35,141 nucleotides of DNA from Bdellovibrionota bacterium (GTDB lineage Bacteria > Bdellovibrionota_C > UBA2361 > JBGSMV01): positions 1 through 35,141 of the forward strand of contig JBIKWF010000037.1 in NCBI GenBank assembly GCA_044356455.1, in the 5' to 3' direction. Shown here in pieces: positions 7,345-35,141 of this stretch. The position numbers and the translations under genes were made by a program. The first letter of the stretch is position 1. Each line of letters begins with the position of its first letter. The notes beneath the pieces were generated by a model, which saw only the letters and a list, made by a program, of their open reading frames with translations, ran no database searches and was not told the DNA's origin.

Positions 7345-8019
7345 ATGGCGGCGGGCATGCTTAGTAGACGAAGAAAGGCGCTGTCCCCGGGGTGGATTCG
7401 TTTTGCCGAAAATGTCGTGGAGCGTGCGGGGGTTATAGAGGAGGACACGGCCGAAACTCTCATTCATGCTTTTTCAGCCGTTCCACGCGATCAGTTTGTC
7501 GCAGAGGCCTTTAACCTTCGTGCGACAGAAGATACCGCCCTTCCAATCGGGTATGGGCAGACTATTTCTAAGCCATCGACTGTTGCTCGAATGCTAGCCT
7601 TGATTGGTCTTAGGCCAGGGCTGCGTGTCCTCGAGATTGGCTGTGGCTCCGGATACTGCAGCGCCGTGATGGCCGCGGCTGGTGCCTCCGTATTTGCGGT
7701 TGAGTTTGTGGGACTGCTTGCGCAGCAGACGCGCCGGAAACTTGATGCGCTTAATTTCCAGAATGTGCTCATTCGAAGAGGAGATGGAAGGCGAGGTTGG
7801 GCGGAGCATGCCCCCTACGATGCTATTGTGGTCTCGGCAGCTTTTGAAACTATGGAGCCTGAGCTCGTGGCGCAGCTTGTTAATCCGGGGGGACGAATGG
7901 TGGCACCCGTTGGCAACACGCGTGGTCAGATTCTAACCCTTTGGGAAGCAAAGGGCGGCGGTGTTGCCATGTATCAGCTTGAGCCTTGTAACTTTGTTGA
8001 GGGGCAGTCACATGCCTAG
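7345..8019 (+). CDS. pcm: Protein-L-isoaspartate O-methyltransferase
   Basis: VPRDQFV, LPIGYGQTIS, VLEIGCGSGY, GWAEHAPYDAIVV, GGRMVAPVG; ATG 7345 preceded by AGAGG. Confidence 0.92.
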   Translation: MAAGMLSRRRKALSPGWIRFAENVVERAGVIEEDTAETLIHAFSAVPRDQFVAEAFNLRATEDTALPIGYGQTISKPSTVARMLALIGLRPGLRVLEIGCGSGYCSAVMAAAGASVFAVEFVGLLAQQTRRKLDALNFQNVLIRRGDGRRGWAEHAPYDAIVVSAAFETMEPELVAQLVNPGGRMVAPVGNTRGQILTLWEAKGGGVAMYQLEPCNFVEGQSHA

Positions 8020-8055
8020 GGAACCTCTTAAGAGCATCGCTATTTTATTTTTTCT

Positions 8056-8128
8056 CTCAGTGAGCTCTGTGTCCTCTGTGGTTTTTTAACAATTTTAATC
8101 AACCACAGAGGGCACAGAGTTCTCTGAG
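8056..8128. repeat. Inverted pair of the 9-bp-periodic CTCTGTG family
   Basis: CTCAGTGAGCTCTGTGTCCTCTGTGGTT - 17-bp AT-rich loop - AACCACAGAGGGCACAGAGTTCTCTGAG. Confidence 0.85.
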
Positions 8129-8209
8129 CGGACTTTTTCAGAGATTCCCTAGCTAGTAGTGCTTTTGGCCGCTCAGGTCGTCATAAGCGAGTTGAAGAGG
8201 ATTTGGCAT

Positions 8210-9051: not shown

Positions 9052-9125
9052 GTCCGCGTAGCTCAGTTGGATAGAGCACAAGTTTCCTAAACTTGGGGTC
9101 GCAGGTTCAATTCCTGCCGCGGACG
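9052..9125 (+). tRNA. tRNA-Arg(CCT), CCA not encoded
   Basis: Acceptor stem GTCCGCG/CGCGGAC, D arm GCTC/GAGC, anticodon arm CAAGT-TT-CCT-AA-ACTTG, T arm GCAGG-TTCAATT-CCTGC. Confidence 0.95.
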
Positions 9126-9128
9126 CTT
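9083..9128 (+). repeat. attL core (3' part of tRNA-Arg)
   Basis: TTTCCTAAACTTGGGGTCGCAGGTTCAATTCCTGCCGCGGACGCTT, identical to 15795-15840. Confidence 0.95.
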
Positions 9129-9174
9129 AATTCATTAGACTTTTTCCTGCCACGCACTACAATTCCAGACAATA

Positions 9175-9193
9175 GGACCAAAAAAAGGACCAA
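9175..9193 (+). promoter_or_regulatory. Candidate integrase arm-type sites (left)
   Basis: GGACCAA twice with 12-bp period; same arrangement at 15660-15680. Confidence 0.6.
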
Positions 9194-9224
9194 TCAGGAG
9201 CGAAAGTAGCGAGGTGGCACCCGT

Positions 9225-10307
9225 ATGGGCGACGTTCTGGAAGTTTCCCGCAAGAGCGGAGAGGTATCCTTTAAGGCGCGAGTTCGACGCCGAGGGGAGC
9301 CGCTTCTTACAAAGACCTTTAAGCGCAAGTCCGATGCTCTAAAGTGGATCGGCTATGTAGAAGCTCAGCTTCTTGAGGGCAAGGGCCTTCCGCGTCCAAA
9401 GCGGCATACGGTGGCCGAGGCAATTGATCGTTATATTGAAGAAATACTTCCGCAGAAAAAGGCGAGCACGCAGAGGGTTGAGAAACCGAGACTTCTGTTC
9501 TGGAAGGATCGTCTTGGTACGAAGCGACTCGCCGAGGTAGATCGTGACGCGCTTTCTGATGCACGCAAACACTTGCTTGATACTCAGGTATGGAGAAAGG
9601 GGGCGACCAAGGGACAAAGCCGGGGCAATGCGACAGCGAATCGATTTTTTGCGCTTCTTCGTCATGTCTATTCCGTTTGTGTAAGAGACTGGGAGTGGTC
9701 GGACGATAATCAAGTATCAAAGATTCGCGCATTGCGAGAGCCTAAGGGACGAAATCGCACCCTCTCTGATGACGAGCTCAAGAAAATACTTGTTGCTCTG
9801 GAGACTCATGAACGCAAGGACTTCAGGTTAATAGTGCAAATCGCCTTAGTCACTGGGTGTCGAAGAGGCAATGCCCAGTCCATTCATTATGAGCATGTCG
9901 ATTTTGAAAGACCGACCGTCACCTTCCCTGATACTAAAAACAATTTGCCCCACGTCGCCCCGATAACTCGAGAACTCGCGGACGAGATTAAAGCATATGT
10001 GAGCCTTGCAAAAATCGAGGCTGGCCCGCTTTTTCCCTCCAAAGAGGGGAGTCGCATGCCCTATGTCGACGTGAAGCAGGTTTGGAGGACGTTTGCTAGC
10101 GATAATGAACTGGAAAAGCTTCGGTTTCACGATCTGCGCCATGCAGTTGGCTCATACTTGGCGCAGCAAAATGTGCCTCTGATTACCATCGGAAAGCTAC
10201 TTGGGCATAAGAGTTTAGAATCGACCAAGCGGTATGTTCATCTCGGCGTTGAGGAAATGACGCAGCCGGTGGAGCAATTAGGGGCGAGGCTTAGGAGGGT
10301 AAAATGA
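9225..10307 (+). CDS. int: Tyrosine recombinase / integrase
   Basis: TGCRRG, FHDLRH, LLGHK, TKRYVH catalytic motifs; N-terminal KTFKRKSDA arm-binding-like region. Confidence 0.95.
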   Translation: MGDVLEVSRKSGEVSFKARVRRRGEPLLTKTFKRKSDALKWIGYVEAQLLEGKGLPRPKRHTVAEAIDRYIEEILPQKKASTQRVEKPRLLFWKDRLGTKRLAEVDRDALSDARKHLLDTQVWRKGATKGQSRGNATANRFFALLRHVYSVCVRDWEWSDDNQVSKIRALREPKGRNRTLSDDELKKILVALETHERKDFRLIVQIALVTGCRRGNAQSIHYEHVDFERPTVTFPDTKNNLPHVAPITRELADEIKAYVSLAKIEAGPLFPSKEGSRMPYVDVKQVWRTFASDNELEKLRFHDLRHAVGSYLAQQNVPLITIGKLLGHKSLESTKRYVHLGVEEMTQPVEQLGARLRRVK

Positions 10308-11065
10308 AGAACTATATCCCGACCGTACATATCTCCGAGGAGTGGCCGCCGCTTCTAAAACGACTGGGACTCGAATATGTGGTTGAAGACAAAGTTTCAT
10401 ATTTCCAGACAATAGGCGACGGCACTGGTTCTCCATATCCTTCTACTATTGAGGAGGCGGCGTACCTTCTGGCTGGAGTTCGCTCTTTTTATATTCCTAA
10501 TCGCCATGATTCCAAAGGCGCGCTGAATGACGATTCGCGCAACCGACTTCGTTTGTTTATTAACTCAGGAGGGTATGTCATTTACGCTCTTCTCAATGAG
10601 GCCCTGGATTCGGGCGAACTTGAGTCGCTTGATTTCAATCATTTGGTTGAGTGGTCAAAAAAAATCGAACCCTTTTTGACCAAAGTGCCTGAGGTTATTC
10701 GAAACCTATTACTGAAAGCGGCAGAGGCGCGGCGGTTGCAGGGGAGAGTGCCTCTCGTCCTTCCCGCTTTTGAGTATGCCTACGCGAACGCGCAACTTCG
10801 AATTGATCGACGAGCGGGGTCTGCCCAGGACCGTGACTTGTTTAGAGCCTTTGTGGTCGATTTTAAGGGCAAGAACCCCAATTGCCGTTTCGCCGATATA
10901 AAGGCGCAACCCTTTGCTAAGGAGCTTCTCTGTCGAGTCGGTGAAGATGGAAAGAGGGTCTATGATGAGGAGACGGTGAAAGAGTGGTGTAAAGATTTTG
11001 CGCTAAACACAGCGCCTGGTCGACCTCGCAAGGTTAAGCCGGGTCAAGTCGGAAATGGGGGGTAA
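10304..11065 (+). CDS. Hypothetical protein coupled to the integrase
   Basis: 253-aa ORF, ATGA overlap with the int stop, basic C-terminal PGRPRK. Confidence 0.7.
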   Translation: MKNYIPTVHISEEWPPLLKRLGLEYVVEDKVSYFQTIGDGTGSPYPSTIEEAAYLLAGVRSFYIPNRHDSKGALNDDSRNRLRLFINSGGYVIYALLNEALDSGELESLDFNHLVEWSKKIEPFLTKVPEVIRNLLLKAAEARRLQGRVPLVLPAFEYAYANAQLRIDRRAGSAQDRDLFRAFVVDFKGKNPNCRFADIKAQPFAKELLCRVGEDGKRVYDEETVKEWCKDFALNTAPGRPRKVKPGQVGNGG

Positions 11066-11169
11066 CTGGGAAAATATATTTCCTCCCGAATTCCCAAATT
11101 TTAACTGAATGCCATTCAGCGTACCAGTCAGAGGCTAGGCACAATCGTGTGCCGCCTTTGAGAGGTACT

Positions 11170-11415
11170 ATGAACCAGCAAGCTTCACCCACCACCCTTC
11201 AACTTCTAACAGTAAAAGACTTCGCAAGGCGCCACTCCTGGCCAATAGGAGGTCTACGACACCTGCTTTTCTATCGCCCCGATAACTTCGAGCGCTGCGT
11301 ACTTCGCGTAGGTCGGAAGGTGCTGATTGATGAGGCAGAGTTCTTTCGCTGGATTCGAGATGTCAATCAGGCAAGAGCGAATGCAGAAGCAAAGAAGGGA
11401 GGGAGGAAGATATGA
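11170..11415 (+). CDS. Excisionase/AlpA-like winged-helix protein
   Basis: LLTVKDFA...RVGRKVLID..F..W pattern; GAGG RBS before ATG 11170; position between int and primase. Confidence 0.7.
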   Translation: MNQQASPTTLQLLTVKDFARRHSWPIGGLRHLLFYRPDNFERCVLRVGRKVLIDEAEFFRWIRDVNQARANAEAKKGGRKI

Positions 11416-11606
11416 TCATCGACCTCCAATTACTGCGAGACCTCGATCAAGCTCGGCATCATGCTTCCGTAGCTATCGAGGAGGAGCTCCGCAATGAGCA
11501 TCTCACTGAAGCGGACCGCGCAAACCTTTCCAGCTTTCTCGCCTTGCTAGATGCGAGCGCACGTCACCCGGTTATGCGGCCCTGTAGAGAAGGAGGCCGC
11601 CAATGA
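11412..11606 (+). CDS. Small hypothetical protein
   Basis: ATGA overlaps with both neighbours; GGAGG upstream. Confidence 0.6.
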   Translation: MIIDLQLLRDLDQARHHASVAIEEELRNEHLTEADRANLSSFLALLDASARHPVMRPCREGGRQ

Positions 11607-11893
11607 TTACCGCCGAACAGATTTGTCGCCGACTGACTCCCGAGCAGTATTACCAAAGGTACCTCAAGAACACGATTAGGACGTCTTCGAAGTGGGTTGC
11701 TATCCGGTGCCCATTTCACGACGACCGAAAGCCGTCCCTGGGGATTAATACCGAATCGGGTGGCTTTTTCTGCCATGCCTGCGAAGCGAAAGGTAAGAAC
11801 ATCATTCACTTTGAAATGCGTCGGTACGGCCTCGATTACCCCGCCGCAAGAGAGAAGCTATGTGCCGAGTGGGGTATCGAATGGAACAGATAG
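11603..11893 (+). CDS. Stand-alone CHC2 zinc finger (primase zinc-binding domain)
   Basis: CPFHDDRKPS...FFCHAC...GKNIIHF. Confidence 0.88.
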   Translation: MITAEQICRRLTPEQYYQRYLKNTIRTSSKWVAIRCPFHDDRKPSLGINTESGGFFCHACEAKGKNIIHFEMRRYGLDYPAAREKLCAEWGIEWNR

Positions 11894-13470
11894 ATTGGAT
11901 GCCAAAGACGTTTGAGGGCCGCGTTTTCAAGTTCGTATGGCCGTATCTAGATGGGCAGGGGAAAGTAATCGGTTATGTCGTGCGTTATGACAGCGCAAAG
12001 GATCCCACCGATAAGGTGACAATTCCATTCTTTAAGAATGGAAATGCAGGGGGTTTCAGAATGGGGGCGCATGCGGAGCCAAAGCCCTTGTTCGGGCTCG
12101 AGAGTTTAGCGCGAGATACTCGGGGCTCGGTGGTCATCGTGGAGGGCGAGAAGTGCGCGGCAGCCCTTCAGGGCCTCGGGATTCCTGCAATCACGTGGCA
12201 GGGCGGCGCGAAGGCATACAGGTCTGCTGACTGGACTGCCATTAGAGGTGTCAAGAAGTGCTATCTCTTCCCGGACAATGATGCGCCCGGGAAGGACGCG
12301 ATGTCTGGAATTTCGAGAATGCTCGCTGAATTTGAGAACCCGCCTCAGTGCGCGATTGTTGACCTCCCCGACCTTCCTGAAAAAGGTGACGTCGTTGATT
12401 TCTTGAAGGGCAAGTTTCCCTCATGGGATGGCTACTTACCGTTTGAGGGAGAGTGTCGTGGATCTGCCATCCAAATTCTCAGAGATGTCGTTAAATCAAG
12501 TGCTCGCGCAGTCCCAGCGATTGAGACAATTCCATGCAAAGCGGAGACTGAGCTGAAATTAGTTGTTCCTCTCCCAATGGACCAATTCATGGACCGAACA
12601 GCGACCCAACGGCGTGCAATTCTTGGCGATTGGTTTCTAGAGAAAATGCCAGTTCTGGTCTCTGGGGAGCCTGGATGCGGGAAGAGTCTTTTCGCCTATA
12701 CCGTTGCGGTGGCCCTAGCTTCCGGGGGAGAGGCTTTCGGTTGGCGAGCTGGAGCGCCGCTTAAGGTTGGCATTTTGGACGGTGAAATGTTCGACGTGAC
12801 AATTCAAAAGCGCCTAGGTGGAATCGTAGCGGGAATGAACCGTGAGTTCGACCCAGCCACGATTCGCCTCTATACCCGGGATATGTGCGCCGACGGCGGA
12901 ACGCCGTTTCCGTCTATGAGACATCCAGAAGAAAGGGAGCCTCTCTTGGATAAGTTTGGAGACGTTGATGTCCTTATTGCAGATAACATAAATGCTCTTT
13001 TTCCGGGGGGAGATGAGAGAGGGACACAGTTTTGGTCTGCTATCGAGCAGTTTCTCTTTGACTGCCGAGCACGAGGGATTGCCCCAATGGTTATCCATCA
13101 CACAACGAAAACAACCCCAGATAGTCCTGCGGGAAGTAGCAAGAATGTACGGGTATTTGAAATGTCGATTGTGCTGACTCGCATTTATGAGGGTCGGGAC
13201 GGGGCACATTTTAACATCACCTTCACGAAGTCCCGGGAACTCAGCAAGGAGCAAGCGCCAAGGAGCGCTTTTGCCGAGACCAGTGAAAAGGGAGCACTCA
13301 AATGGGAGTTGGCCGATTATGTGCCTCCATCAGACGAGGATTCGGGATGGGCGAGCAAAGCCCGTTCCGCCCGGGCAAGTGGCCAGAGTATTCGAAAAAT
13401 CGCATCTGCTTTGGGGAAGAGTACGAGCACGATCCACACGATGCTCAAAAAGGAGGATGTTGCGACTTGA
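11881..13470 (+). CDS. TOPRIM primase - AAA_25/RepA-like helicase with C-terminal HTH
   Basis: VIVEGEKCA, FPDNDAPG, KGDVVD; Walker A GEPGCGKS, LDGEM, LIADN, IHH, AGSS; C-terminal SIRKIASALGKSTSTIH. Confidence 0.88.
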   Translation: MEQIDWMPKTFEGRVFKFVWPYLDGQGKVIGYVVRYDSAKDPTDKVTIPFFKNGNAGGFRMGAHAEPKPLFGLESLARDTRGSVVIVEGEKCAAALQGLGIPAITWQGGAKAYRSADWTAIRGVKKCYLFPDNDAPGKDAMSGISRMLAEFENPPQCAIVDLPDLPEKGDVVDFLKGKFPSWDGYLPFEGECRGSAIQILRDVVKSSARAVPAIETIPCKAETELKLVVPLPMDQFMDRTATQRRAILGDWFLEKMPVLVSGEPGCGKSLFAYTVAVALASGGEAFGWRAGAPLKVGILDGEMFDVTIQKRLGGIVAGMNREFDPATIRLYTRDMCADGGTPFPSMRHPEEREPLLDKFGDVDVLIADNINALFPGGDERGTQFWSAIEQFLFDCRARGIAPMVIHHTTKTTPDSPAGSSKNVRVFEMSIVLTRIYEGRDGAHFNITFTKSRELSKEQAPRSAFAETSEKGALKWELADYVPPSDEDSGWASKARSARASGQSIRKIASALGKSTSTIHTMLKKEDVAT

Positions 13471-13477
13471 GAATGGT

Positions 13478-13516
13478 GTTCGTTCGTTCAGAACCCAGAG
13501 AATCGAACGAACGAAC
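13478..13516. repeat. 12-bp perfect inverted repeat of GTTC units, candidate origin
   Basis: GTTCGTTCGTTC - 15 bp - GAACGAACGAAC, just after the helicase stop. Confidence 0.55.
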
Positions 13517-13555
13517 GCGCTCGAGTTAGGCTTACACTGAATAGGGGGGGGGGAG

Positions 13556-13750
13556 ATGGAGCAATCCAATCAAAAAAATAGGAGCGCCTTAAGGGTAGCA
13601 GAGGAGATATTGGCCCGCTTCAGAGTTAGGGAGTCCGAAAGCGCGCCACGCCCATCGGAGCCGCCGTATCTGTCTTTGGCGAAGGGAGAGAAACCGCCTG
13701 ATTTGTGGACTCAGAATTCTCTTAAATTTTGTGCAATTTTAGTTCATTGA
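13556..13750 (+). CDS. Small hypothetical protein
   Basis: 64-aa ATG ORF preceded by a G10 run. Confidence 0.4.
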   Translation: MEQSNQKNRSALRVAEEILARFRVRESESAPRPSEPPYLSLAKGEKPPDLWTQNSLKFCAILVH

Positions 13751-13775
13751 CCTTCTTTGTGGAGTGTTGAGATCA

Positions 13776-14135
13776 ATGTCCTCAGAACAGGAAGGTAACA
13801 GGCGAGATCAACGAACCAGGAAAGGGAGATTTCCCGCCGGGAAGAGCGGTAATCCCGGGGGGCGCCCGAAGTCTTTGGCAGATATTCAAGAAATAGCCCG
13901 GTCTAGGTCGGGCGAAGCGCTCGACGTTATTACGCGAATAATGCGTGAAGGTAAGCCGCTTGAGCAGCTTCAGGCCGCGAGGCTGGTCTTGGAAAGAGCC
14001 TGGGGTAAGCCCGTTGCGCCTGTGGACTCACCGGACGACTCTCCGATAGTTCCGGTACTCATTATCAATATGTCCAAGAGCTCGCGGAGCGAAGGAGGGA
14101 CACCAAGCGCCGGGAAGCCCATCGACGTATCCTAG
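13776..14135 (+). CDS. DUF5681-type protein, small-terminase-like
   Basis: GRFPAGKSGNPGGRPK followed by helical region and LERAWGKP. Confidence 0.7.
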   Translation: MSSEQEGNRRDQRTRKGRFPAGKSGNPGGRPKSLADIQEIARSRSGEALDVITRIMREGKPLEQLQAARLVLERAWGKPVAPVDSPDDSPIVPVLIINMSKSSRSEGGTPSAGKPIDVS

Positions 14136-14250
14136 CGGCCGATAGGGGAGTGCCAACTTCTTGATGCCTCTTGTTGTGCTTGACTACTGAGTGCTGTCTG
14201 TTAGCGTTCAGCGGCACGCCAAAACACCTGGCACCAACAAGGGAATCTCT

Positions 14251-15069
14251 ATGAGAACTATCGCGATTGCGACTCTTCTATCTGTGTTCATAAGTATCGA
14301 TGCTTTCGCCGCGCCCCTTCGAGTGTGCTTGGATAAGAGTGGAAAACTAATTGCGGCTGCGAAATGCGGTAGAGGTCAGATACCTGTTACTTCCGCGACT
14401 CTCGATACTCTTGGATTCCGTGGTGCTCCAGGAACACCAGGTGCCGCGGGTGCTCCGGGCGCCGCAGGGGCTACAGGTGCAACTGGCCCGACAGGGTTGA
14501 CTGGACCAGTTGGACCGGCAGGGATTGCAGGGCCTCAAGGAGAGCCAGGGACAACTGGTGCGCAGGGTCCAACTGGAGAGCCAGGTCCTATAGGTCCAGT
14601 TGGTCCTGGCCTAGCTTTGTATGATGCTAACGAGCAGATGGTTGGACCTGTTGTCGGATTTGGTTGTCCGCCGCCACTCAACCCTGGGCTGGTGTTTGAC
14701 GCGGCAGCCGTAACTATTTCTAGAAATGGAAAGCTGTATCCTGTTTGCGCGGCGAACTCTCAATTTCTGCTTAGCCAATCTGTCCTCTTCACTTCCTCTG
14801 ATTGTACGGGAACTGGCTACGGTTACGGAGGGGAGCCGACACCCAATAGCCAGGCTCTTTTCGCTTCCAACATTGTCTCACGGTACGGGGGGCGCACTGT
14901 GTTGCTTCGGCCGGAAACCTCCGGCGGGAGGCAAGTAGTGACCTACAATTCATCAGTTAACACCGAGGGCACCTGCGCCGTAACGGGCGCAGGTTCCGCG
15001 AGTGTATTTCCACTAGTCGAGGAAGCCGATCTTTCTGCTCTGTATGCCCTTCCGCTTATGGTTCGTTAG
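14251..15069 (+). CDS. Secreted collagen-like protein
   Basis: Signal peptide ending AFA, 22 contiguous Gly-X-Y triplets, Cys-containing C-terminal domain (F.SSDC.G motif). Confidence 0.85.
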
Positions 15070-15095
15070 GAGCCACGATGAAGCACAGTTAGTAG

Positions 15096-15179
15096 ATGGC
15101 CGCGGAACTAGGCTGGTCCCCTATTGCAGAAGAAGCGGACCTTTCGGAGTTGTATCCGGGGCCACTGACAGTTCGATAG
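15096..15179 (+). pseudogene. Diverged copy of the collagen gene 3' end
   Basis: Encodes PIAEEADLSELYPGPLTVR* versus [19 protein letters not shown]. Confidence 0.75.
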
Positions 15180-15203
15180 CAGGATTCACCCTGTTCTGGG
15201 GCG

Positions 15204-15572
15204 TCACTTAATCTTCTTGCATGCTGCGCCACATGCCTTCTTAAGCCGCTTGGCAAGCTTGGCCTGATACTTCCCGTAAGCAACCCACTCCTGGAGGACA
15301 TTATTCGATTGAGTGTTTGCAGCAGTACATTGGTCAAGCTGGGCCTGAACGCCTGCTTTGAGCTCACGCATATAGTTGTATCGGTCGCACAGCTCGCCGA
15401 CAGAATGGCCGAAATAAGCCTCGTTATTAAATCCACCATCGCCGCATAGGATGTCCCCGCTAGAGCAGAAGGGGAAACCACCTGGTTCTATGAAGCAGCC
15501 TCCTGGTGGGCTGGTTTGGGCGAAACTACTTGCAGGCACTAGCAGTAAAGCGGTGAGAAGTATTTTCTTCAT
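15204..15572 (-). CDS. Secreted Cys-rich small protein
   Basis: AGGAG RBS, signal peptide MKKILLTALLLVPASSFA, multiple Cys, coiled segment, basic C-terminus KKACGAACKKIK. Confidence 0.75.
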   Translation of the reverse strand: MKKILLTALLLVPASSFAQTSPPGGCFIEPGGFPFCSSGDILCGDGGFNNEAYFGHSVGELCDRYNYMRELKAGVQAQLDQCTAANTQSNNVLQEWVAYGKYQAKLAKRLKKACGAACKKIK

Positions 15573-15659
15573 ATGATCTCCTAGGCTGACGGCATTGACC
15601 ATGCCACTAAACTTAGTCGCCAAGTGATTAGTAGCCCATAGAGGGACGCAAGTCATCAA

Positions 15660-15680
15660 GGACCAAAAAAGGGACCAAAA
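15660..15680 (+). promoter_or_regulatory. Candidate integrase arm-type sites (right)
   Basis: GGACCAAAAAAGGGACCAAAA, 12-bp period, matches 9175-9193. Confidence 0.6.
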
Positions 15681-15794
15681 CACTGCATGAAACCGCCACA
15701 CGAGACTACTGAAGGCCACTCTCATTTCAAGATAAGGTTCTGAAATATTTATGGTGATTGATTGCCATTTTTTGTAGTGTTTTGAAGATCTTAT

Positions 15795-15840
15795 TTTCCT
15801 AAACTTGGGGTCGCAGGTTCAATTCCTGCCGCGGACGCTT
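15795..15840 (+). repeat. attR core (duplicated tRNA 3' part)
   Basis: Identical to 9083-9128. Confidence 0.95.
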
Positions 15841-15847
15841 TGTTTCC

Positions 15848-16040
15848 CGCTTGGCGCTCTGGCCCAGGGGGCTGCTGCCCCCTCTCGCCCTAATCGGGCG
15901 TTCACCCCGGAGTGCTGGATTTCGCGCTTGGCGCTCTGGCCCAGGGGCTTCGCCCCTCTCGCCCTGATCGGGCGTTCACCCAGGAGTGCTTGATTTCGCG
16001 CTCGAGGCTCCGGCCCAGGGGGCTTTTGCCCCGTCTCGCC
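15848..16040 (+). repeat. Tandem about 75-bp GC-rich repeat, about 2.6 copies
   Basis: Units begin at 15848, 15925, 15999; each has a GGGGC-n-GCCCC hairpin. Confidence 0.85.
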
Positions 16041-16195
16041 GCTTATCGCGGCAGCATCTGTCAGGTTCTACTGAGTTGCTTTCCTCTCTGAGTAACAAGA
16101 AATCCCTAAGTGCGCTCTTTGAGGGTGAAATAAATGTTCTCTTCCTACTTGAATGTTCGAGGAGACTCTGTAGATGGGGTTAAGAAGGGATTAGC

Positions 16196-16461: not shown

Positions 16462-16779
16462 TTACGCACGTCTAGAAAGAAATGCGGACGTCAACAAACC
16501 AATTCCAAAAGCAATCCCAATCGCCATAAGCGGAGATTCTTGGACTTTGGATTCAATCTGCCTTGCGCCTTCTCTTCCTGATGCAAGCATCGAGTTGTAC
16601 GAATCATGAGCAACCGTCCCCACATCCGTGCTCACGGCTGAGCCTGCATCGCGAATTGCAGAACCTACTTGCCGTGCGCTTGAACGAAGCTCGTTGCCCA
16701 GATGCTCTGCAGCACCAATTGCAACACCACTCATTTTCCTTACTTCATTTGCTGAGTCTTGAAGAGTGTTTGTTCCCAT
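16462..16779 (-). CDS. YqjD/ElaB (DUF883) family tail-anchored protein
   Basis: AAGGAG RBS; helical repeats then VQESPLMAIGIAFGIGLL..LSRR. Confidence 0.85.
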   Translation of the reverse strand: MGTNTLQDSANEVRKMSGVAIGAAEHLGNELRSSARQVGSAIRDAGSAVSTDVGTVAHDSYNSMLASGREGARQIESKVQESPLMAIGIAFGIGLLTSAFLSRRA

Positions 16780-17025
16780 ATCTTTAATCTCCTTTAAGAG
16801 TAAATGATTTGTGCTTAAGACCTTTATCCTGCCCACGGTCTTGCACGTATGATCTCGCTCACGGGGAGGCTCATTTTTTAGAATATTTTTGGTTTGAGAA
16901 TGACCTACATCATACGAGCTTTTTGGGCTCTGGTTCATCATGCCTCTCCTGAGGCAGTTCTTAACGAGCGGCTCGTGGCGTGCTACGTGAGAGTGCCAAA
17001 TTGAGAGATCTTGCTGCCCAGAATA

Positions 17026-17439
17026 ATGGTGGATTGCATGTACATTGAAGATGAAATTCGAGGTGCCAAGAGTTCCTATCAGCAGGCCCTCACCAGCCTT
17101 GCCGTTCTCATGCAAGCGCACGCCGCACTTCTTCAAACCGAAATTCGCGAAAGAGCGCGGACCTTCGTAGGTGCTGTTCTGCTGTGCGCGTTTGGGGTGA
17201 TGGGTGCGCTTGTGGCGCTCATGCTTGGGGCGCTGGCCCTGGCAGGAGTGCTTAGTAGTAACTTTCCTTCCCTCGGTGAGCATCAAGCCCTTGCGCTTGT
17301 CGCGCTGCTGGCTATGGCGGTCGTGGTGGGGCTAGTAATAAGTGGCTTGACCCTCCTTCGAAGGTCCACTGAATCGTCGATGGAATCACTAACTTCTCTA
17401 AAAGAGAGCGTCTTATGTGTGCTGAGAGAAGTGTCATGA
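17026..17439 (+). CDS. YqjE-like (phage holin family / DUF1469) membrane protein; start uncertain
   Basis: HAALLQTEIRE followed by two TM helices and SLTSLKES; context next to YqjD-like gene. Confidence 0.7.
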   Translation: MVDCMYIEDEIRGAKSSYQQALTSLAVLMQAHAALLQTEIRERARTFVGAVLLCAFGVMGALVALMLGALALAGVLSSNFPSLGEHQALALVALLAMAVVVGLVISGLTLLRRSTESSMESLTSLKESVLCVLREVS

Positions 17440-17828
17440 GAACTCAAAAGGAAGAACTTCAGGAGCGCATCCTTCAGTCCCGCCGCGAGCTTGCCGAGAG
17501 CCTCTTGGACCTTGTGGCTGCGGGGCGCAGTCTTAGGGAGAAGAGCGGCCGCGCTGTCCGCAATCCTGCGAGCGCAGCTCGCTATGTGTGGAGCAATCAA
17601 CTTTCAAGCACTCAGCGCTACAAGGTTATGGGCGCTGCGTTTCTTGGGGGCGGGGTTGTTGGCTTTGCAGGAGTTCGGAAATCTAGAGCCCCCTTCGCAC
17701 CACGTACTCCCGTGGCCTGGCTTATGCTTATGGCAAGACCGCTTGTGGGAGAGCTGATTGCCGAGGCCCAGGTATTTGGACACCGGGCACTCCTTAGCTT
17801 GTTCCGTGCGCCTCTCAAATCGGAGTAA
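17436..17828 (+). CDS. YqjK/DUF3618-like protein
   Basis: ATGA overlap; EELQERILQSRRELAESL N-terminus, hydrophobic segment. Confidence 0.6.
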   Translation: MRTQKEELQERILQSRRELAESLLDLVAAGRSLREKSGRAVRNPASAARYVWSNQLSSTQRYKVMGAAFLGGGVVGFAGVRKSRAPFAPRTPVAWLMLMARPLVGELIAEAQVFGHRALLSLFRAPLKSE

Positions 17829-17975
17829 GACCAAAGAATCCGATGTGCTTAGAGGCGACAGCGCTCCTTGCCATGAGGTTTCTTGAAAAGACGGCCCACA
17901 GAATTCCATTTTCAAGAATTCCGCAGGGCCAATAATTAGGGAATCTCTGAAAAACCGTGATACTTCATTTATTCG

Positions 17976-18048
17976 CTCCGTGTTCTCTGTGCGCTCTGTG
18001 GTTTTTCAAATATTTAAATCAACCACAGAGGTCACCGAGATCACAGAG
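17976..18048. repeat. Inverted pair of the CTCTGTG family between convergent genes
   Basis: CTCCGTGTTCTCTGTGCGCTCTGTGGTT - 17 bp - AACCACAGAGGTCACCGAGATCACAGAG. Confidence 0.8.
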
Positions 18049-18073
18049 CAGGCTTTTTTATAGTCTTCAAAGG

Positions 18074-18631
18074 TTAGATTGCTGCGGGAGCGGATTTGTG
18101 ACCGTTCTTAACTTCTGCATGCTTTCCTGGCGTAGACTCTGAGCCCATCGCCTCTTGATTGGAGCGTGTACGCGCCAATTCTGTGAGGGTCTTATTGGCC
18201 TCAATCTCCTCGTCAAGGATTCCCTTGAGCACTTTCGCAGCTTCGTCATGGTCTAGACACTTCGCCCACTCTTGTAAGCATCCGTACGAAGCAATCTCGT
18301 AATGTTCAATTTTCTGAGCAGCCGAGACAAGAGCGGCATTGATTGCAGGTGAGCCCTTAAAGTGAGAAGCGATTTCCTCTCCTTCTTTAATCAGGCCTAC
18401 CGTGCCTTGACACTTCTTCGTATGGGGCGTCTCGCCAAACGTCTTGAAGATACCTTCAAGCTTAGTGACATGCCCCTCGGTTTGCTTCAGGTGCGTTTGG
18501 ATTAGCTTCTTAAAGTGACTGCAGGTAGCAGCCTCTGCTAATTTGGGCATGGCCTGAACAAGCTGCTTCTCGGAGTCGAATCGGTCAGCGAGTTCCTCAA
18601 GGAATAGGTCTTTTAGTGTTTTCATATACAA
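18074..18631 (-). CDS. yciF: YciF (DUF892) ferritin-like protein
   Basis: TLKDLFLEEL, SEKQL, GLIKEG, AAQKIEHYEIASYG, ILDEE. Confidence 0.9.
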   Translation of the reverse strand: MYMKTLKDLFLEELADRFDSEKQLVQAMPKLAEAATCSHFKKLIQTHLKQTEGHVTKLEGIFKTFGETPHTKKCQGTVGLIKEGEEIASHFKGSPAINAALVSAAQKIEHYEIASYGCLQEWAKCLDHDEAAKVLKGILDEEIEANKTLTELARTRSNQEAMGSESTPGKHAEVKNGHKSAPAAI

Positions 18632-18672
18632 TCCTTTGCTAGTTACGTTAAAGGGGTAGGGGGGCCTCGGGC

Positions 18673-19656
18673 TTAGCCGGGGACGATCTGGAGGTGGTTA
18701 ATAACTTCATACCCAAGCGAAGCGCGTGCGCTTGTTTTCCCGAGCCAATCTTTCTCGCTAAGAGATTGTACGGGGCCGCGCAGATGGATCTTCCCTTGGT
18801 CTAGTACAATCGAAACGCGGCGGGCTTTGGACGAGAGAGTGGCATTCGTTACAATATCCCTGCGAATTCTCGCTAACATTCCAAGCTCAGTTCCCGTAAC
18901 GTGGTAGCGTCCCCCGGATGAGACAATCTCTTGCGCGTGAGCGCTTCCGTGTACTGAATCAATCGTTCGGTACTGTGGCGAGATTCGGATAGGCTTCTGC
19001 GCAGTCTCGGCCTGAACCGGGGAGAGGCCGCCTTGCTGGGAAAGGAAAAGGCAGCCTGCGAATCCTAGCATTCGTGAGGTGCTAAGTGAGGGGCGCCGAG
19101 GTTGTGTTTTTGGTAGCGCAGACCCATTAATGCGTTGCTCCTTATCATCACCGCTTGCTGGGATATTTGCACGCGGCAAGATCTCTCCAAAGCAAATGGC
19201 GGAGAAGGTGCTTTGAGCGGCTCGGTCCTCGATGAGCGTCTCCTCGAGGAGCCGAGATGCCGTATCTAATCCGAGTTCTACGGCTATGTCATGTGCGTTC
19301 TCGTAGGAGGAAATAGCATACGCTTCAGCTCTTTGGGTCGCGCCCAGCAGAACTACATCAAGCAAGGCTTTATTCTCATACTGGTCGTCTTGGATTCTTT
19401 TGCTTTCATCGACGAGCCCGCGAACCGCTTCGCACAGTTGGCCGCTCACTGAGACGTTGAGAAGGACTCCAATATCTTCAAGACGCTCAAGATGGCCCTC
19501 GGTCGCAAGCAAGTGTGCGTGCGCTGCTTGTTTGAGGCTTCTGCTTGTTGCGCGTTGCTCAAGGAGCGTGAGATTCGCAAGTATTTGATACTCGGCGCTG
19601 TAGAGATCTTTAAGTTGCTGGGTGAGGCAGTCTTCGAGGTTTTTGAGGTGGGCCAT
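18673..19656 (-). CDS. Degenerate YciF ferritin-like domain fused to a BON domain
   Basis: LKDLYSAEYQI...TQRAEAYAISSY; C-terminal IRRDI...GKIHLRGPVQS..EK...VINHLQI. Confidence 0.75.
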   Translation of the reverse strand: MAHLKNLEDCLTQQLKDLYSAEYQILANLTLLEQRATSRSLKQAAHAHLLATEGHLERLEDIGVLLNVSVSGQLCEAVRGLVDESKRIQDDQYENKALLDVVLLGATQRAEAYAISSYENAHDIAVELGLDTASRLLEETLIEDRAAQSTFSAICFGEILPRANIPASGDDKEQRINGSALPKTQPRRPSLSTSRMLGFAGCLFLSQQGGLSPVQAETAQKPIRISPQYRTIDSVHGSAHAQEIVSSGGRYHVTGTELGMLARIRRDIVTNATLSSKARRVSIVLDQGKIHLRGPVQSLSEKDWLGKTSARASLGYEVINHLQIVPG

Positions 19657-19801
19657 AAGTGAGGCGTCCTTGGCGTAAGTATTTTCTCTCAAGCTGCATG
19701 CAAAGAGAGAGTGGAGACACTTATGCCAGCCTCTGGTAGGGGAGGGTATGTTCTAGGTCATGGTGTGGTCCTAACGCTTGCTGCCCTGCAACAAAAAATC
19801 T

Positions 19802-26227: not shown

Positions 26228-26821
26228 ATGATCAAAGCCCAAGAAACCCGGGTTTCTAGTTCGAGCCTTAAATTTCTTACTGCTGATTTTAGGCTCGTGT
26301 CGGGCGCGCCCAAACAGGACTATCCGCAGACGGCGTATCTTTTACCAGCAACCGCAAAACTTCTTGAGGAATTAGAGGGCCGGGTCAATGCGGGCTCGGT
26401 TTCGACCGAGGGAAAGATTTCATCTCTCGCCGGACTACCGCTATCAGTTGATGCGATCACTTTCGGTAAGTTTTTCAAAGACAAAGACGACTCTCGATTC
26501 ACGGATCCCGAAGAATTCCTTATTGATGCGCGCGTATCGCGCGTCATGCTCGATAAGGTCGTTGGCTCCCTTCGTACGCTCGGGTTTGACGCGATTGGAG
26601 TTACAGAAACGGGAGATATGAAGGCTGCCGGATATCTCGTCGTGCGTGGGGGCTTTACTGACCTTTCTCACTTGAAGGAGGTTGTTAGCCCAGCGAGATC
26701 GACCAAGGTTATAGAAGTACCGAATTGGGACTTCTCTTCGCCCGGGGCTCCGGGAGCAACTACTTTTGAAGATCTTGCCGTCCCCGCGGGATCAAGGGAG
26801 CAAACTCCTCAGACAAGGTAG
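26228..26821 (+). CDS. Hypothetical protein; stop codon lies in a REP GTAG
   Basis: Open frame from ATG 26228; TAG at 26819-26821. Confidence 0.6.
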   Translation: MIKAQETRVSSSSLKFLTADFRLVSGAPKQDYPQTAYLLPATAKLLEELEGRVNAGSVSTEGKISSLAGLPLSVDAITFGKFFKDKDDSRFTDPEEFLIDARVSRVMLDKVVGSLRTLGFDAIGVTETGDMKAAGYLVVRGGFTDLSHLKEVVSPARSTKVIEVPNWDFSSPGAPGATTFEDLAVPAGSREQTPQTR

Positions 26822-27263
26822 GGCGCCCTGTTCCGTCTCTGCCAGTAGGCGACGGCGCGACGCGCGCCTCAGGGCGCCGCAAGATCTCTCGTGCTGGCGC
26901 GTGGCATGTATTTGTCCACCTCACGGATTACAGAATCGCTACCGTCCTTGGATGCCCCGCGGCATTGCCCTGCCTGGGGGGCGTTTTGGTAGGGCGCCGC
27001 GTCCCCGCGGTGCCGCAAGATCTTTCGACCTGGCACGTGGCATGTATTTGTCCACCGAACTGATTGCGCAAAAGAAACGGCTCGCGGATGCCCCGCGGCA
27101 TTTGATGCGGCACGCCGGGGACGGCGCGCCCTACCTAGGGGTTCGGCATCTTGGTAGGGCGCCGCGTCCCCGCGGTGCCGCAAGATCTTGCGTCCTGGCA
27201 CGTGGCATGTGTTTGTCCACCTCACTGATTGCGAAATCGTAACCGTTTGTGAATGCCCCGCGG
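26817..27263. repeat. REP/REPIN tandem array 1 (BIME-like)
   Basis: GTAG REPs at 26818(+), 26989(+), 27108-27135(-), 27154(+), with homologous spacers. Confidence 0.9.
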
Positions 27264-27375
27264 ATTCGAATCAATTGTTCGCCTCTCCCCCCACGCAAAA
27301 AAACCACAGAGCCCAGAGATATCATTCTCTCTGGAAACTCTGTGGCTTATCAAAACTCAGTAACTTCTAACGTAA

Positions 27376-30585: not shown

Positions 30586-30964
30586 TCCGGCGCGTCCTAC
30601 CTTGGAGTTCGGCATCTAGGTAGGGCGCCCTGTCCCCAGGGCGCCGCAAGATCTCTCGTCCTGGCACGTGGCCGATATTTGTCCATCTGACTGATCGCGA
30701 AATCGCAACCGTCTGTGGAAGTCCCGCGGCATTTGATTCGGCACGCCGGGGACGGCGCGCCCTACCTAGGGGTTTGGCATCTTGGTAGGGCGCCCTGTTC
30801 CGTCTCTGCCAGTAGGCGGCGCCGCGACAAGCCCCAGGGCGCCGCATGATCTCCGGTCCTGGCACCTGGCCTATATTTGTCCACCGAACTGATTGCGAGA
30901 AAGAAACGGTCCGCGGATGCCCCGCGGCATTTGTTTCGGCGCCCTGGGGACAGGACGCCCTACC
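30586..30964. repeat. REP/REPIN tandem array 2
   Basis: REPs at 30620(+), 30739-30766(-), 30785(+), 30937-30964(-); spacers homologous to array 1. Confidence 0.9.
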
Positions 30965-31011
30965 TTGCGGTGCACCATCTTGGTGCGGCACTGGTGGAGA
31001 ACCGTCTCCCA

Positions 31012-33812: not shown

Positions 33813-34268
33813 TTAGGAATACGGCCCCTCAAACCAAGCCAGATGCCCCCACGCATCCCGAGAAGGTACCAACCCGGCTCGAACAGGATTGTCGAGCACG
33901 TATTCGATTTTGTGCTGAAGTTGTAGGTTGTTTCGGATGCGGTGTTCGAAGAAGCGCCTTTGCCAAGGTATTTTAAGTTCCCTCGCAAGCCAGCCCTTGA
34001 AATAACGAATGGTCTCCTCGGGCACAGTCTGCCCATAGAGAACCATGTGGATATGGTCGGGCATGATAAGAATTAACAAGCATCCCCAGGCATGTTTCTC
34101 GTGATAGTGCCGCGCAGCCTCCAATATCCTTGGCGCCACGTGAGGCTGAATCAGGAGGGTCGTCCCGCGTGGCTTCGCGCAAACGGTAACAAAGAAGAAG
34201 TGCAGGGAGTTTGATAAAAACCAAGGAAGTGCATGATTTAGGGGCTTTCTCTCGGGGAGTTGTGCCAT
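33813..34268 (-). CDS. REP-associated tyrosine transposase (RAYT, HUH/Y1)
   Basis: FFVT, MPDHIH, WQRRFFEHRIR, YVLDNPVRAGLV; REP doublet directly upstream. Confidence 0.9.
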   Translation of the reverse strand: MAQLPERKPLNHALPWFLSNSLHFFFVTVCAKPRGTTLLIQPHVAPRILEAARHYHEKHAWGCLLILIMPDHIHMVLYGQTVPEETIRYFKGWLARELKIPWQRRFFEHRIRNNLQLQHKIEYVLDNPVRAGLVPSRDAWGHLAWFEGPYS

Positions 34269-34327
34269 AACGAATTCTGAGTTGAAGTTACAGGGGTTAT
34301 CGAGCCCCGCCCAAAAAAGTTTCGCCC

Positions 34328-34467
34328 GGTAGGGCGCGCCGTCCCCGGCGTGCCGTGCAATGTTTCGGGCTGCCCTAATGATTTGTGTCTGCCGCCAAAC
34401 GGGAATGTTGCGGTGGCCACGTTGGCGGGATTGTTTATTCGGCACGCCGGGGACGGCGCGCCCTACC
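34328..34467. repeat. Inverted REP doublet upstream of RAYT
   Basis: GGTAGGGCGCGCCGTCCCCGGCGTGCCG (34328-34355) and exact reverse complement (34440-34467), 84-bp spacer. Confidence 0.92.
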
Positions 34468-34480
34468 GAGATTGGTGAAT

Positions 34481-35011
34481 ATGATAGGGAGAAGGATCCG
34501 GCCGTTGCTATTAGGATTGGTTCTTTGCGGCACACTCTCCGCCTGCACCGAAACCCTCATCCGCCGCACCCCCGCCTCCGGCGTGCTCTCGAACACGACT
34601 CCAACCACGTCCTCATCGAAATCGTCCGGTACTTCATCTTCAGCCTCAGATCTTTCTGAGCTACAAGCAGAATTGGCCACGCTTCGCTCCCAGTATGAAA
34701 GCGATAGCAAAAGAGGGGAGATCCTCCGCCATCTCTCAGAGATTCGAATCGCACACCTAGAGGCCGTATCTGATTACCAAAATATTGGACTTTCAATTCT
34801 CGCAAAACGAGAAGACCTCAGCGAGGCTGAAGAGCGCATCATGTATTCCACGCTCTCAACTAAGGCCGCGGTAGTTCAGGCTCTCGCGGTGCGGGTTGTC
34901 TCAGCAATTGACGAAGCCCTTCCCCTTTTCGACCCTGATTCGGAAGATCATCAGGACCTCGAAGAGCTCAAAGAGTCCCTGCGGGTAAAACTCAGCAAAA
35001 CAGCCAGGTAG
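34481..35011 (+). CDS. Putative lipoprotein; stop codon lies in a REP GTAG
   Basis: Lipobox LSAC, Ser/Thr linker, helical domain. Confidence 0.7.
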   Translation: MIGRRIRPLLLGLVLCGTLSACTETLIRRTPASGVLSNTTPTTSSSKSSGTSSSASDLSELQAELATLRSQYESDSKRGEILRHLSEIRIAHLEAVSDYQNIGLSILAKREDLSEAEERIMYSTLSTKAAVVQALAVRVVSAIDEALPLFDPDSEDHQDLEELKESLRVKLSKTAR

Positions 35012-35069
35012 GGCGCGCCGTTCCGCCTCTGCCAGTAGGCGACGGCGCGACGCGCGCCCCGGCGTGCCG
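35007..35069 (+). repeat. REP with 35-bp insert in the loop
   Basis: GGTAGGGCGCGCCGT-[35022-35056]-CCCCGGCGTGCCG. Confidence 0.85.
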
Positions 35070-35141
35070 AAACAATTGTACGGTCCAATCCAAATGCGGC
35101 GGTAATAACGCAAACTTGGAGGTGGCGAAAAACGCACAACG

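Follow-up and report, generated by a model that had tools for sequence, protein, structure and literature searches.

PICMIs (phage-inducible chromosomal minimalist islands) of the Vibrionaceae average 6.7 kb. As far as the accessible text of their description goes (PMC10803314), they have no packaging gene, the model used to detect them forbids a small terminase subunit (TerS) of family PF05119, and in PICMI115 the genes int, iolg and alpA are required for excision and prim for replication. Phage-inducible chromosomal islands (PICIs) have a median length of 9.5 kb and, in the parts of the survey available to us (PMC10085698), >99.9% of them occur in Proteobacteria or Firmicutes. Virion encapsidated integrative mobile elements (VEIMEs), according to the available portion of PMC9618062, measure <5 to 16.8 kb, lack a capsid gene, in some cases encode a TerS and are packaged as concatemers. 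Here we describe a 6,712-bp island (att to att) of a Bdellovibrionota bacterium that is probably a minimal, capsid-less phage satellite. It lies in contig JBIKWF010000037.1 of assembly GCA_044356455.1, the whole of which (35,141 nucleotides) was analysed and is called the window below. The genome comprises 4.70 Mb in 216 contigs and is 93% complete. We use G-numbers for genomes of the phylum (the host genome is G000), C-numbers for their contigs (the window is C172) and L-numbers for fetched loci.

On sequence evidence we could establish that the island is a site-specific integrative element with apparently intact integrase, excisionase-like, primase-helicase and TerS genes. It is bounded by an exact 46-bp direct repeat (9083-9128 and 15795-15840) that has two copies only in the 4.70-Mb genome, with flanking sequence that differs on both sides; this bears out the att repeats in tRNA-Arg(CCT) that a preliminary description of this DNA had proposed. 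The left copy, the attL core (9083-9128, plus strand), is the 3' portion of an intact tRNA-Arg(CCT) gene, the integration target (9052-9126, plus strand; Rfam RF00005, 69.9 bits). It begins at the anticodon loop, a frequent crossover position for tyrosine integrases. The attR core (15795-15840, plus strand) is the duplicated 3' part of the tRNA. This tRNA was the single one found by ARAGORN in the window and the sole match of an Rfam scan. Inside the left end are two 7-bp direct repeats, 12 bp apart (9175-9193, plus strand), and inside the right end is another pair of 7-bp direct repeats (15660-15678, plus strand); the identical repeat pair occurs at both ends of a related element in genome G092. 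From their sequence and placement we infer that these pairs are integrase arm-binding sites, whose expected arrangement they match. Base composition gave no foreign signal (GC 52.2% in the island and 52.5% in the genome).

The gene order previously given, namely an integrase gene, a gene of no named family (ORF2), an excisionase-like gene, a small open reading frame (ORF), a CHC2 gene, a TOPRIM/helicase gene, a second small ORF and a DUF5681 gene, was correct. All genes from the integrase through a collagen-like cargo gene (14251-15069) lie on the plus strand, and the last cargo ORF (15204-15572) lies on the minus strand. We scanned the ten ORFs of the island against Pfam, PHROG and NCBIfam. 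The tyrosine integrase (9225-10307, plus strand, 360 aa) matched PF00589 (E 2e-29) and phrog_1 (E 5e-59), and its catalytic residues R213, H302, R305, H328 and Y337 are all in place. With these residues, the att sites and the arm-type repeats all present, the earlier view of an apparently intact, very small element holds. ORF2 (10304-11065, plus strand, 253 aa) overlaps int by an ATGA, in the position of iolg in PICMIs. It has 7 homologues in the 50% library, and the same slot is occupied in elements of G092 and G050. No match to ORF2 was found in GenBank phages or PLSDB; its predicted fold (pLDDT 75) gave no significant PDB match, and the ESM Atlas returned unnamed clusters only.

The next gene encodes a small protein of 81 aa (11170-11415, plus strand), which the preliminary description had labelled xis/alpA-like. 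The protein itself has no Pfam or PHROG match, and its family profile has no meaningful PDB match. The top ESM Atlas clusters were a putative excisionase (PF06806) and HTH_17, at 0.94, and HTH_17 was matched weakly by 3 of 22 members of the family, the island copy not being among them. Members of the family directly precede int in two viral contigs (L330 and L331). From these clusters, the weak family match and the position before int, we read the protein as a probable Xis/AlpA-like DNA-binding protein. Two ORFs of 64 aa complete the left and central parts of the island: one (11412-11606, plus strand) has ATGA overlaps on both sides and sits at the PICMI up1 position, and the other (13556-13750, plus strand), of uncertain gene status, follows a poly-G ribosome-binding-like stretch. 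Both are preceded by ribosome-binding-like sites, and neither has a family in Pfam or PHROG or a homologue among the fetched loci. Scans for promoters and terminators gave results at or below chance level.

The replication module consists of a free-standing CHC2 zinc-binding domain of a DnaG-type primase (11603-11893, plus strand; PF01807, E 1e-12), with zinc residues C36, H39, C57 and C60 in place, and a 529-aa protein (11881-13470, plus strand) that joins a TOPRIM primase, an AAA_25 helicase of the RecA/RepA type and a C-terminal helix-turn-helix (HTH) (PF13481, PF13936; phrog_239, E 3e-32). Its motifs (E88, D132/D134, a Walker A at 262-269 and D368) are in place. The CHC2/TOPRIM split is natural, and a frameshift error as its origin was ruled out: CHC2 is a separate gene in 25 further loci, of which 16 have an integrase nearby, and the second ORF is served by a ribosome-binding-like site of its own. 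The domains are fused in 38 mostly phage loci. The full-length primase had no match in GenBank phages or PLSDB. Just past the primase stop is an inverted array of short tandem repeats (13477-13517; fold z -2.9, 2/200 shuffles), which from its sequence and position is likely the origin of replication. Ten related loci (L022, L023, L030, L031, L033, L037, L041, L050, L057 and L291) have arrays of different sequence at this position, and none was seen after the primase gene in several other related loci.

The integrase side of the island follows the gene order of PICMI115 as described in the accessible text of PMC10803314. With PICMIs the island shares its size, the lack of a capsid-remodelling gene and the order int - ATGA-overlapping gene - alpA/xis-like gene - small ORF - primase - cargo, in which ORF2 corresponds to IolG by position only. 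The integrase family of the PICMI model, PF00589, is present, and the AlpA profiles PF05930 and PF12728 are unmatched by the island regulator. In contrast, PICMIs integrate at fis, whereas the island sits in a tRNA-Arg(CCT) that has pcm and an M23/LysM gene before it. The PICMI primase is of the DUF3987 or DUF5906 type, whereas the split CHC2 and TOPRIM/AAA_25 proteins matched neither family at E 0.1. Lastly, the island carries a TerS gene and PICMIs, by that description, do not have a packaging gene. On account of its tRNA site, its different primase and its TerS, the island is not a PICMI.

The predicted TerS is a protein of 119 aa (13776-14135, plus strand) of the DUF5681/phrog_15261 family, with a DUF5681 match of 29.5 bits against a Pfam cut-off of 27.5. 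When a profile of 43 homologues was compared with the PDB, the sole significant matches were the TerS proteins of PaP3 (6W7T, E 4.6e-7) and NV1 (7JOQ, E 1.4e-5). An AlphaFold model (pLDDT 65) was consistent with this: Foldseek ranked the PaP3 and NV1 TerS first, at non-significant E values of 1.4 and 2.3, and VIA-align placed NV1 TerS first among 48,161 chains (Z 4.8, rmsd 2.7, 49 aligned). In viral loci with a homologue, which are not all mutually independent, an ORF resembling the large terminase subunit (TerL) begins <=1 kb downstream in 65 of 80 cases by leave-self-out BLAST; three further loci were assigned by PHROG, bringing the count to at least 68 of 80. Out of 41 downstream ORFs chosen by eye from 79, PHROG identified 38 as TerL. 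In Xanthomonas phage PBR31 the homologue lies immediately before the annotated TerL and portal genes. In the 43-sequence family alignment, which was seeded from the island protein, that protein keeps every one of the 4 invariant and 13 near-invariant columns. Close homologues (P0002 and P0003) are 78-79% identical.

Taken together, the sequence profile, the fold ranking and the gene position identify the DUF5681 gene as a TerS gene, and the TerS-like gene of the preliminary description is thereby supported. By profile and fold, it shares the helical core of the PaP3 and NV1 proteins; it differs from them in having a short Gly/Pro/Arg-rich arm instead of the N-terminal HTH and in a divergent C-terminus. 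In the literature that we could search, with most subscription papers outside its reach, DUF5681 appears only as a DUF listed in a virion proteome (a single publication, accessible in part). The assignment of these DUF5681/phrog_15261 proteins as TerS related to those of PaP3 and NV1 is new and is the firmest general gain of this work.

The possession of a TerS brings the island close to other described satellites. With capsid-less (Type B) PICIs, including the Staphylococcus aureus pathogenicity islands (SaPIs), it shares four of five core functions when judged by function and not by model profiles, on the available parts of PMC10085698. Three of these are an integrase, a primase-replicase and a TerS; the fourth would be the regulator, in PICIs a homologue of AlpA, MerR or Stl, which here has no PF05930 or PF12728 match. 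The island has no capsid-morphogenesis gene, as is also the case for many Type B elements and SaPIs, and in either group cargo follows terS and tail, holin and portal genes are lacking, as far as that source describes them. It differs from PICIs in lying below their 9.5-kb median and in having a TerS of the DUF5681/PaP3-like family. Standard PICI profiles may therefore miss it, because of this TerS and the unmatched regulator.

VEIMEs, as far as PMC9618062 was accessible, share with the island their size range, a tyrosine integrase, a primase/helicase, AlpA/excisionase and TerS gene types and the lack of a capsid gene; like them it is a monomer of <17 kb with an integrase and no major capsid gene. 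VEIMEs were defined by concatemers found in marine virions, whereas the island is known from its genes alone and is compared by description. Its layout also fits that of PICI-like tycheposons (bioRxiv 10.1101/2020.12.28.424599), again by the description accessible to us, in the tRNA target, the inward-facing integrase and the adjacent replication module; those elements are reported, in the parts seen, never to have extra cargo, and the island has cargo. No Psu, Delta or Sid gene, as in P4-like satellites, and no capsid, portal or TerL gene of its own, as in capsid-forming PICIs (cf-PICIs), was matched among the ten ORFs. By analogy with these systems, the island would appear to work most like a capsid-less, TerS-bearing PICI or VEIME. 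The literature search found no description of this lineage, nor of any phage satellite of Bdellovibrionota. The proposal that it represents an undescribed family consequently holds at the level of the lineage only, and the set of components is already known from Type B PICIs, TerS-bearing VEIMEs and PICI-like tycheposons.

To place the island among its relatives we searched 124 genomes of the phylum, and the counts include its own genome. A related integrase was present in 24 genomes, the xis-like gene in 23, a related primase or helicase in seven and a phrog_15261 gene in seven. From 44 fetched regions, many of which ended at contig ends, we delimited twelve elements in which tRNA-derived att repeats enclose an integrase, the island included; this sample is not unbiased, as the G092 element was first located through its TerS. 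A TerS-like gene stands downstream of the replication gene, with TerL absent, in six of the twelve: the island (6,712 bp) and the elements of G092 (6,698 bp), G033 (5,782 bp), G106 (7,804 bp), G091:C63 (6,638 bp) and G021 (9,106 bp). The TerS proteins of the six belong to three families (phrog_15261/DUF5681, phrog_4044 and phrog_83/PF05119), and such recurrent independent capture argues for selection. The TerS-bearing elements are scattered over the integrase phylogeny, which is a quick tree, so that the group is a mosaic rather than a single clade.

The closest relative is the element of G092:C56 (L270:7705-14445), from a different host family. It has the same tRNA, ORF2, the xis gene, the same arm-type repeats and a sister integrase (58% identical; SH-aLRT 100 in the quick tree), its gene order agrees with that of the island, and its TerS is 37% identical to that of the island. 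It differs in an unrelated gene at the Rep position and in its restriction-modification cargo (a Dam-like methylase and a MutH-like nuclease). The gene at the Rep position, a 364-aa ORF without Pfam or PHROG match (L270:11144-12235), is a candidate new replication protein, and a lipoprotein-like gene (L270:7842-8501) lies between attL and int. The sizes of 6,712, 6,698 and 6,638 bp are alike though Rep and cargo differ between the first two, and this similarity may reflect a packaging constraint or chance. In the 5,782-bp element of G033:C146, protein P0123 (L024:9420-10379) is also found on a public contig of 5,796 bp, near unit length, which is possibly the excised form of the element.

The island could also be explained as a prophage in decay that has lost its late region beyond terS. 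Its parts are phage-like, and xis-int pairs of this family occur on viral contigs of 28-40 kb. An 11,223-bp viral contig (L333) has the order tRNA-Arg(CCT) - related integrase - ORF - xis-like gene - Rep - ParB-like gene - TerS - large ORF; the large ORF has weak TerL matches, and the contig represents a larger element that shares the left arm. However, the island contains no broken gene and no remnant of a TerL, portal or capsid gene, and its att ends and arm-type repeats are intact. Capsid, portal, TerL, holin and relaxase families had zero matches among the ten ORFs, and no structural, lysis or conjugation family was matched. The absence of capsid, portal, tail and conjugation genes noted earlier is thus upheld, the sole tail-fibre PHROG matches being confined to the collagen stretch of the cargo protein; with respect to conjugation, no relaxase family was matched in the ORFs and oriT was not searched for. 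In addition, five other compact TerS-bearing elements of 5.8-9.1 kb follow the same plan at four different tRNAs. The gene order sought in other genomes therefore exists there as compact att-bounded elements and not only as pieces of prophages. The prophage explanation is already largely refuted, and we regard it as very unlikely.

We consider it probable, on balance, that the island is a minimal capsid-less phage satellite that excises, replicates itself and uses its own TerS for concatemer packaging in full-size helper heads. Infection by a tailed helper phage would turn on the cluster of coupled xis, small ORF, CHC2 and primase genes. Recombination of attL with attR at the anticodon loop, by the integrase with the excisionase-like protein and probably ORF2, would then yield a 6,712-bp circle. 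With its C-terminal HTH the primase-helicase would bind the inverted repeat that follows its gene and, using in trans the zinc domain encoded apart from it, would copy the circle into concatemers. TerS of the element would mark this DNA and recruit the TerL of the helper; with no capsid-resizing gene, several copies would enter each normal head, approximately six for a 40-kb head. Following injection the element would integrate at tRNA-Arg(CCT), and the host would gain two secreted proteins. This interpretation is supported by the G092 element, which keeps the site, the integrase clade, ORF2, xis, TerS and the size while Rep and cargo differ, and by the PICMI115 order of the left arm together with the VEIME precedent of capsid-less elements with a TerS.

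On the other hand, a number of observations weigh against the satellite interpretation. Taken alone, the fold scores of the TerS model (E 1.4; Z 4.8) are weak. PaP3 TerS binds DNA through its N-terminal HTH, according to the accessible text of PMC7672466; in the island protein the matched portion is the helical core and this HTH is missing, so that its recognition of DNA is unproven. It could be speculated that the protein, with its helical oligomer core, acts instead as a decoy against incoming phages by blocking their packaging motor, as a form of interference or defence, and that the element itself is not packaged. No recognised defence gene is found elsewhere in this copy: PADLOC gave side matches to DnaG domains and one weak AAA match only, and no real defence family. 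However, the N-terminus is equally short and Gly/Pro/Arg-rich in phage members of the family that stand ahead of TerL, and these likewise lack the HTH, which is therefore normally absent in this family. We think that a decoy is quite unlikely.

A further point on that side is that the other six of the twelve delimited elements (5.0-12.6 kb) have no recognised TerS and that one has a TrwC relaxase, so the backbone does not depend on TerS. An 8.7-kb element at a tRNA-Trp (L286, G075:C129) has the same integrase and xis-like families and a TrwC relaxase instead of a primase; the int/xis module therefore also serves conjugatively mobilised elements. Another possibility is accordingly a self-replicating cargo island, comparable to cargo tycheposons and cryptic genomic islands, that is moved by vesicles, ordinary transduction or transformation with terS as a passenger. 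No recognised TerS is present in any of the four att-bounded elements from metagenomes whose primase is most similar (L031, L037, L050 and L107). Cargo also outlives the core, as in a remnant on G000:C156 and in G033:C73 (L013:2148-18182), where a 16-kb island at this tRNA-Arg(CCT) contains cargo only. The ORFs of the latter, named by eye, look biosynthetic (radical SAM, glycosyltransferase, asparagine-synthase-like), and a related integrase lies just beyond its attR. Against a passenger role, TerS proteins of three families recur at one position without TerL, and the island protein has kept every invariant and near-invariant column of the alignment built from it. Such a cargo island is unlikely in our judgement.

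Signs of activity and of a helper are also on the negative side of the balance. Two lake-water runs contain more than half of the words sampled, and one of them may be the source; no RNA dataset was listed among those containing the sequence. Four runs were examined as contigs, which drop rare forms, and in these the att sites were nowhere joined as attP or attB. Depth in the best run was about equal in the island (8.3-11.8) and the nearer flanks (8.1-8.9). Neither a copy nor a close relative of the island was found in IMG/VR, GenBank phages or plasmids. In IMG/VR, the primase (as a single-protein query) and the arm-site motif found nothing, and alignments of xis and the integrase gave phage contigs and one larger tRNA-Arg element, with no small satellite; a 6,674-bp viral contig was ruled out as a satellite, being a phage fragment of chance size. 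No helper phage was identified, and a simple repeat scan of the genome found no CRISPR array that could have led to one. In the 93%-complete genome, phrog_2 gave two weak partial TerL matches and PF03237 and phrog_38 none, other TerL families not having been searched. The helper would therefore probably be a phage infecting from outside, not a prophage of the host genome. A phage contig of 39,909 bp binned with a genome of the same order (L312, G020:C1) has a phrog_15261 TerS, TerL, portal and major capsid protein, and its TerS is 36% identical to that of the G106 element. It shows a kind of helper that could fit, its host being uncertain and the contig perhaps misbinned.

The same sequencing runs bear on whether the locus is a chimera of metagenome assembly. 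The assembly consists of 216 contigs, and the whole stretch is not covered by any one public contig. Nevertheless, contigs from runs of separate studies match the island and its flanks without differences and at similar depth, and the G092 element repeats the site and layout. A chimera is exceedingly unlikely.

The cargo begins after terS. The first gene (14251-15069, plus strand; PF01391) encodes a predicted secreted collagen-like protein of 272 aa, with a signal-peptide-like N-terminus (judged by eye), a Cys domain, Gly-X-Y repeats and a Cys-containing C-terminal domain. It was ruled out as a tail fibre: the PHROG matches cover only the Gly-X-Y stretch (approximately residues 45-138), and the start is signal-peptide-like. 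That it acts as a surface adhesin is a guess. Homologues occur in islands of G106, G051 and G091 and on G000:C156, and the C-terminal part is matched in 5 of the 124 genomes. The second cargo ORF (15204-15572, minus strand) encodes a predicted secreted Cys-rich protein of 122 aa with one homologue, in the G106 element. The copy on C156 of the same genome has 84% nucleotide identity, with only the 3' end of terS ahead of it. It is part of a core-less 5.3-kb island at a tRNA-Ser(CGA) (G000:C156:18696-24160; L011:8697-14161) that contains the terS remnant, the collagen-like gene, a secreted ORF and two trypsin-like genes, has no integrase or primase, and lies between long direct repeats comprising the tRNA 3' half and palindromic repeats. 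This remnant indicates that the terS-collagen junction moved as a unit and that cargo can outlast the core. The suggestion that secreted cargo takes the place of defence genes is accurate for this copy; it fails for the lineage, given the methylase and nuclease of the G092 element.

Upstream of the target tRNA are pcm and the M23/LysM gene. In G100:C256 (L295) and G019:C36 (L308), too, an integrase comes after the tRNA-Arg(CCT) that has pcm and the M23 gene in front of it; in the latter genome the integrase is split into two ORFs. The tRNA is therefore a hot spot in this order. In a congeneric genome, G001, the upstream genes and the tRNA are the same, with neither integrase nor att repeat within 5.7 kb downstream; it is not a precise empty site, because the downstream genes differ. 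To the right of attR in the window is a cluster of small stress-type genes (16462-19692), whose ORFs we take to be ferritin-like and BON-like; different genes lie downstream of the tRNA in the congeneric genome. Dispersed palindromic repeats of several families are found at 8017-8143, 15837-16048, 17937-18063, 26816-27267, 30593-31008, 34323-34472 and 35006-35072, and one family adjoins attR on its outer side. An ORF next to a cluster of these repeats (33813-34535) presumably encodes a REP-associated tyrosine transposase.

These data can be combined, tentatively, in a broader picture that we regard as possible and short of likely. The island would belong to an active lineage of minimal satellites linking PICMIs and PICIs, in which a PICMI-like arm has repeatedly captured unrelated TerS genes of three families. 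Swaps of TerS would retarget the elements to other helpers, packaging would hold their size near 6.7 kb, and the DUF5681/phrog_15261 family would expose overlooked satellites. Secreted collagen-like surface proteins would pass with the elements from one host family to another, and cargo islands without a core would be left behind at tRNAs. What is new here is the lineage, the combination of a PICMI-like arm with a TerS and the assignment of the DUF5681 group as TerS. The design is a recurrent one, and its overall strategy has precedents in SaPIs, Type B PICIs, VEIMEs and tycheposons. Satellite models that include this TerS profile along with the xis-like family and the split CHC2/TOPRIM primase offer a direct way to more such elements. 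If the island is active, TerS-type satellites would extend to a freshwater uncultured phylum, and a PICMI-sized backbone could bear its own packaging adaptor.

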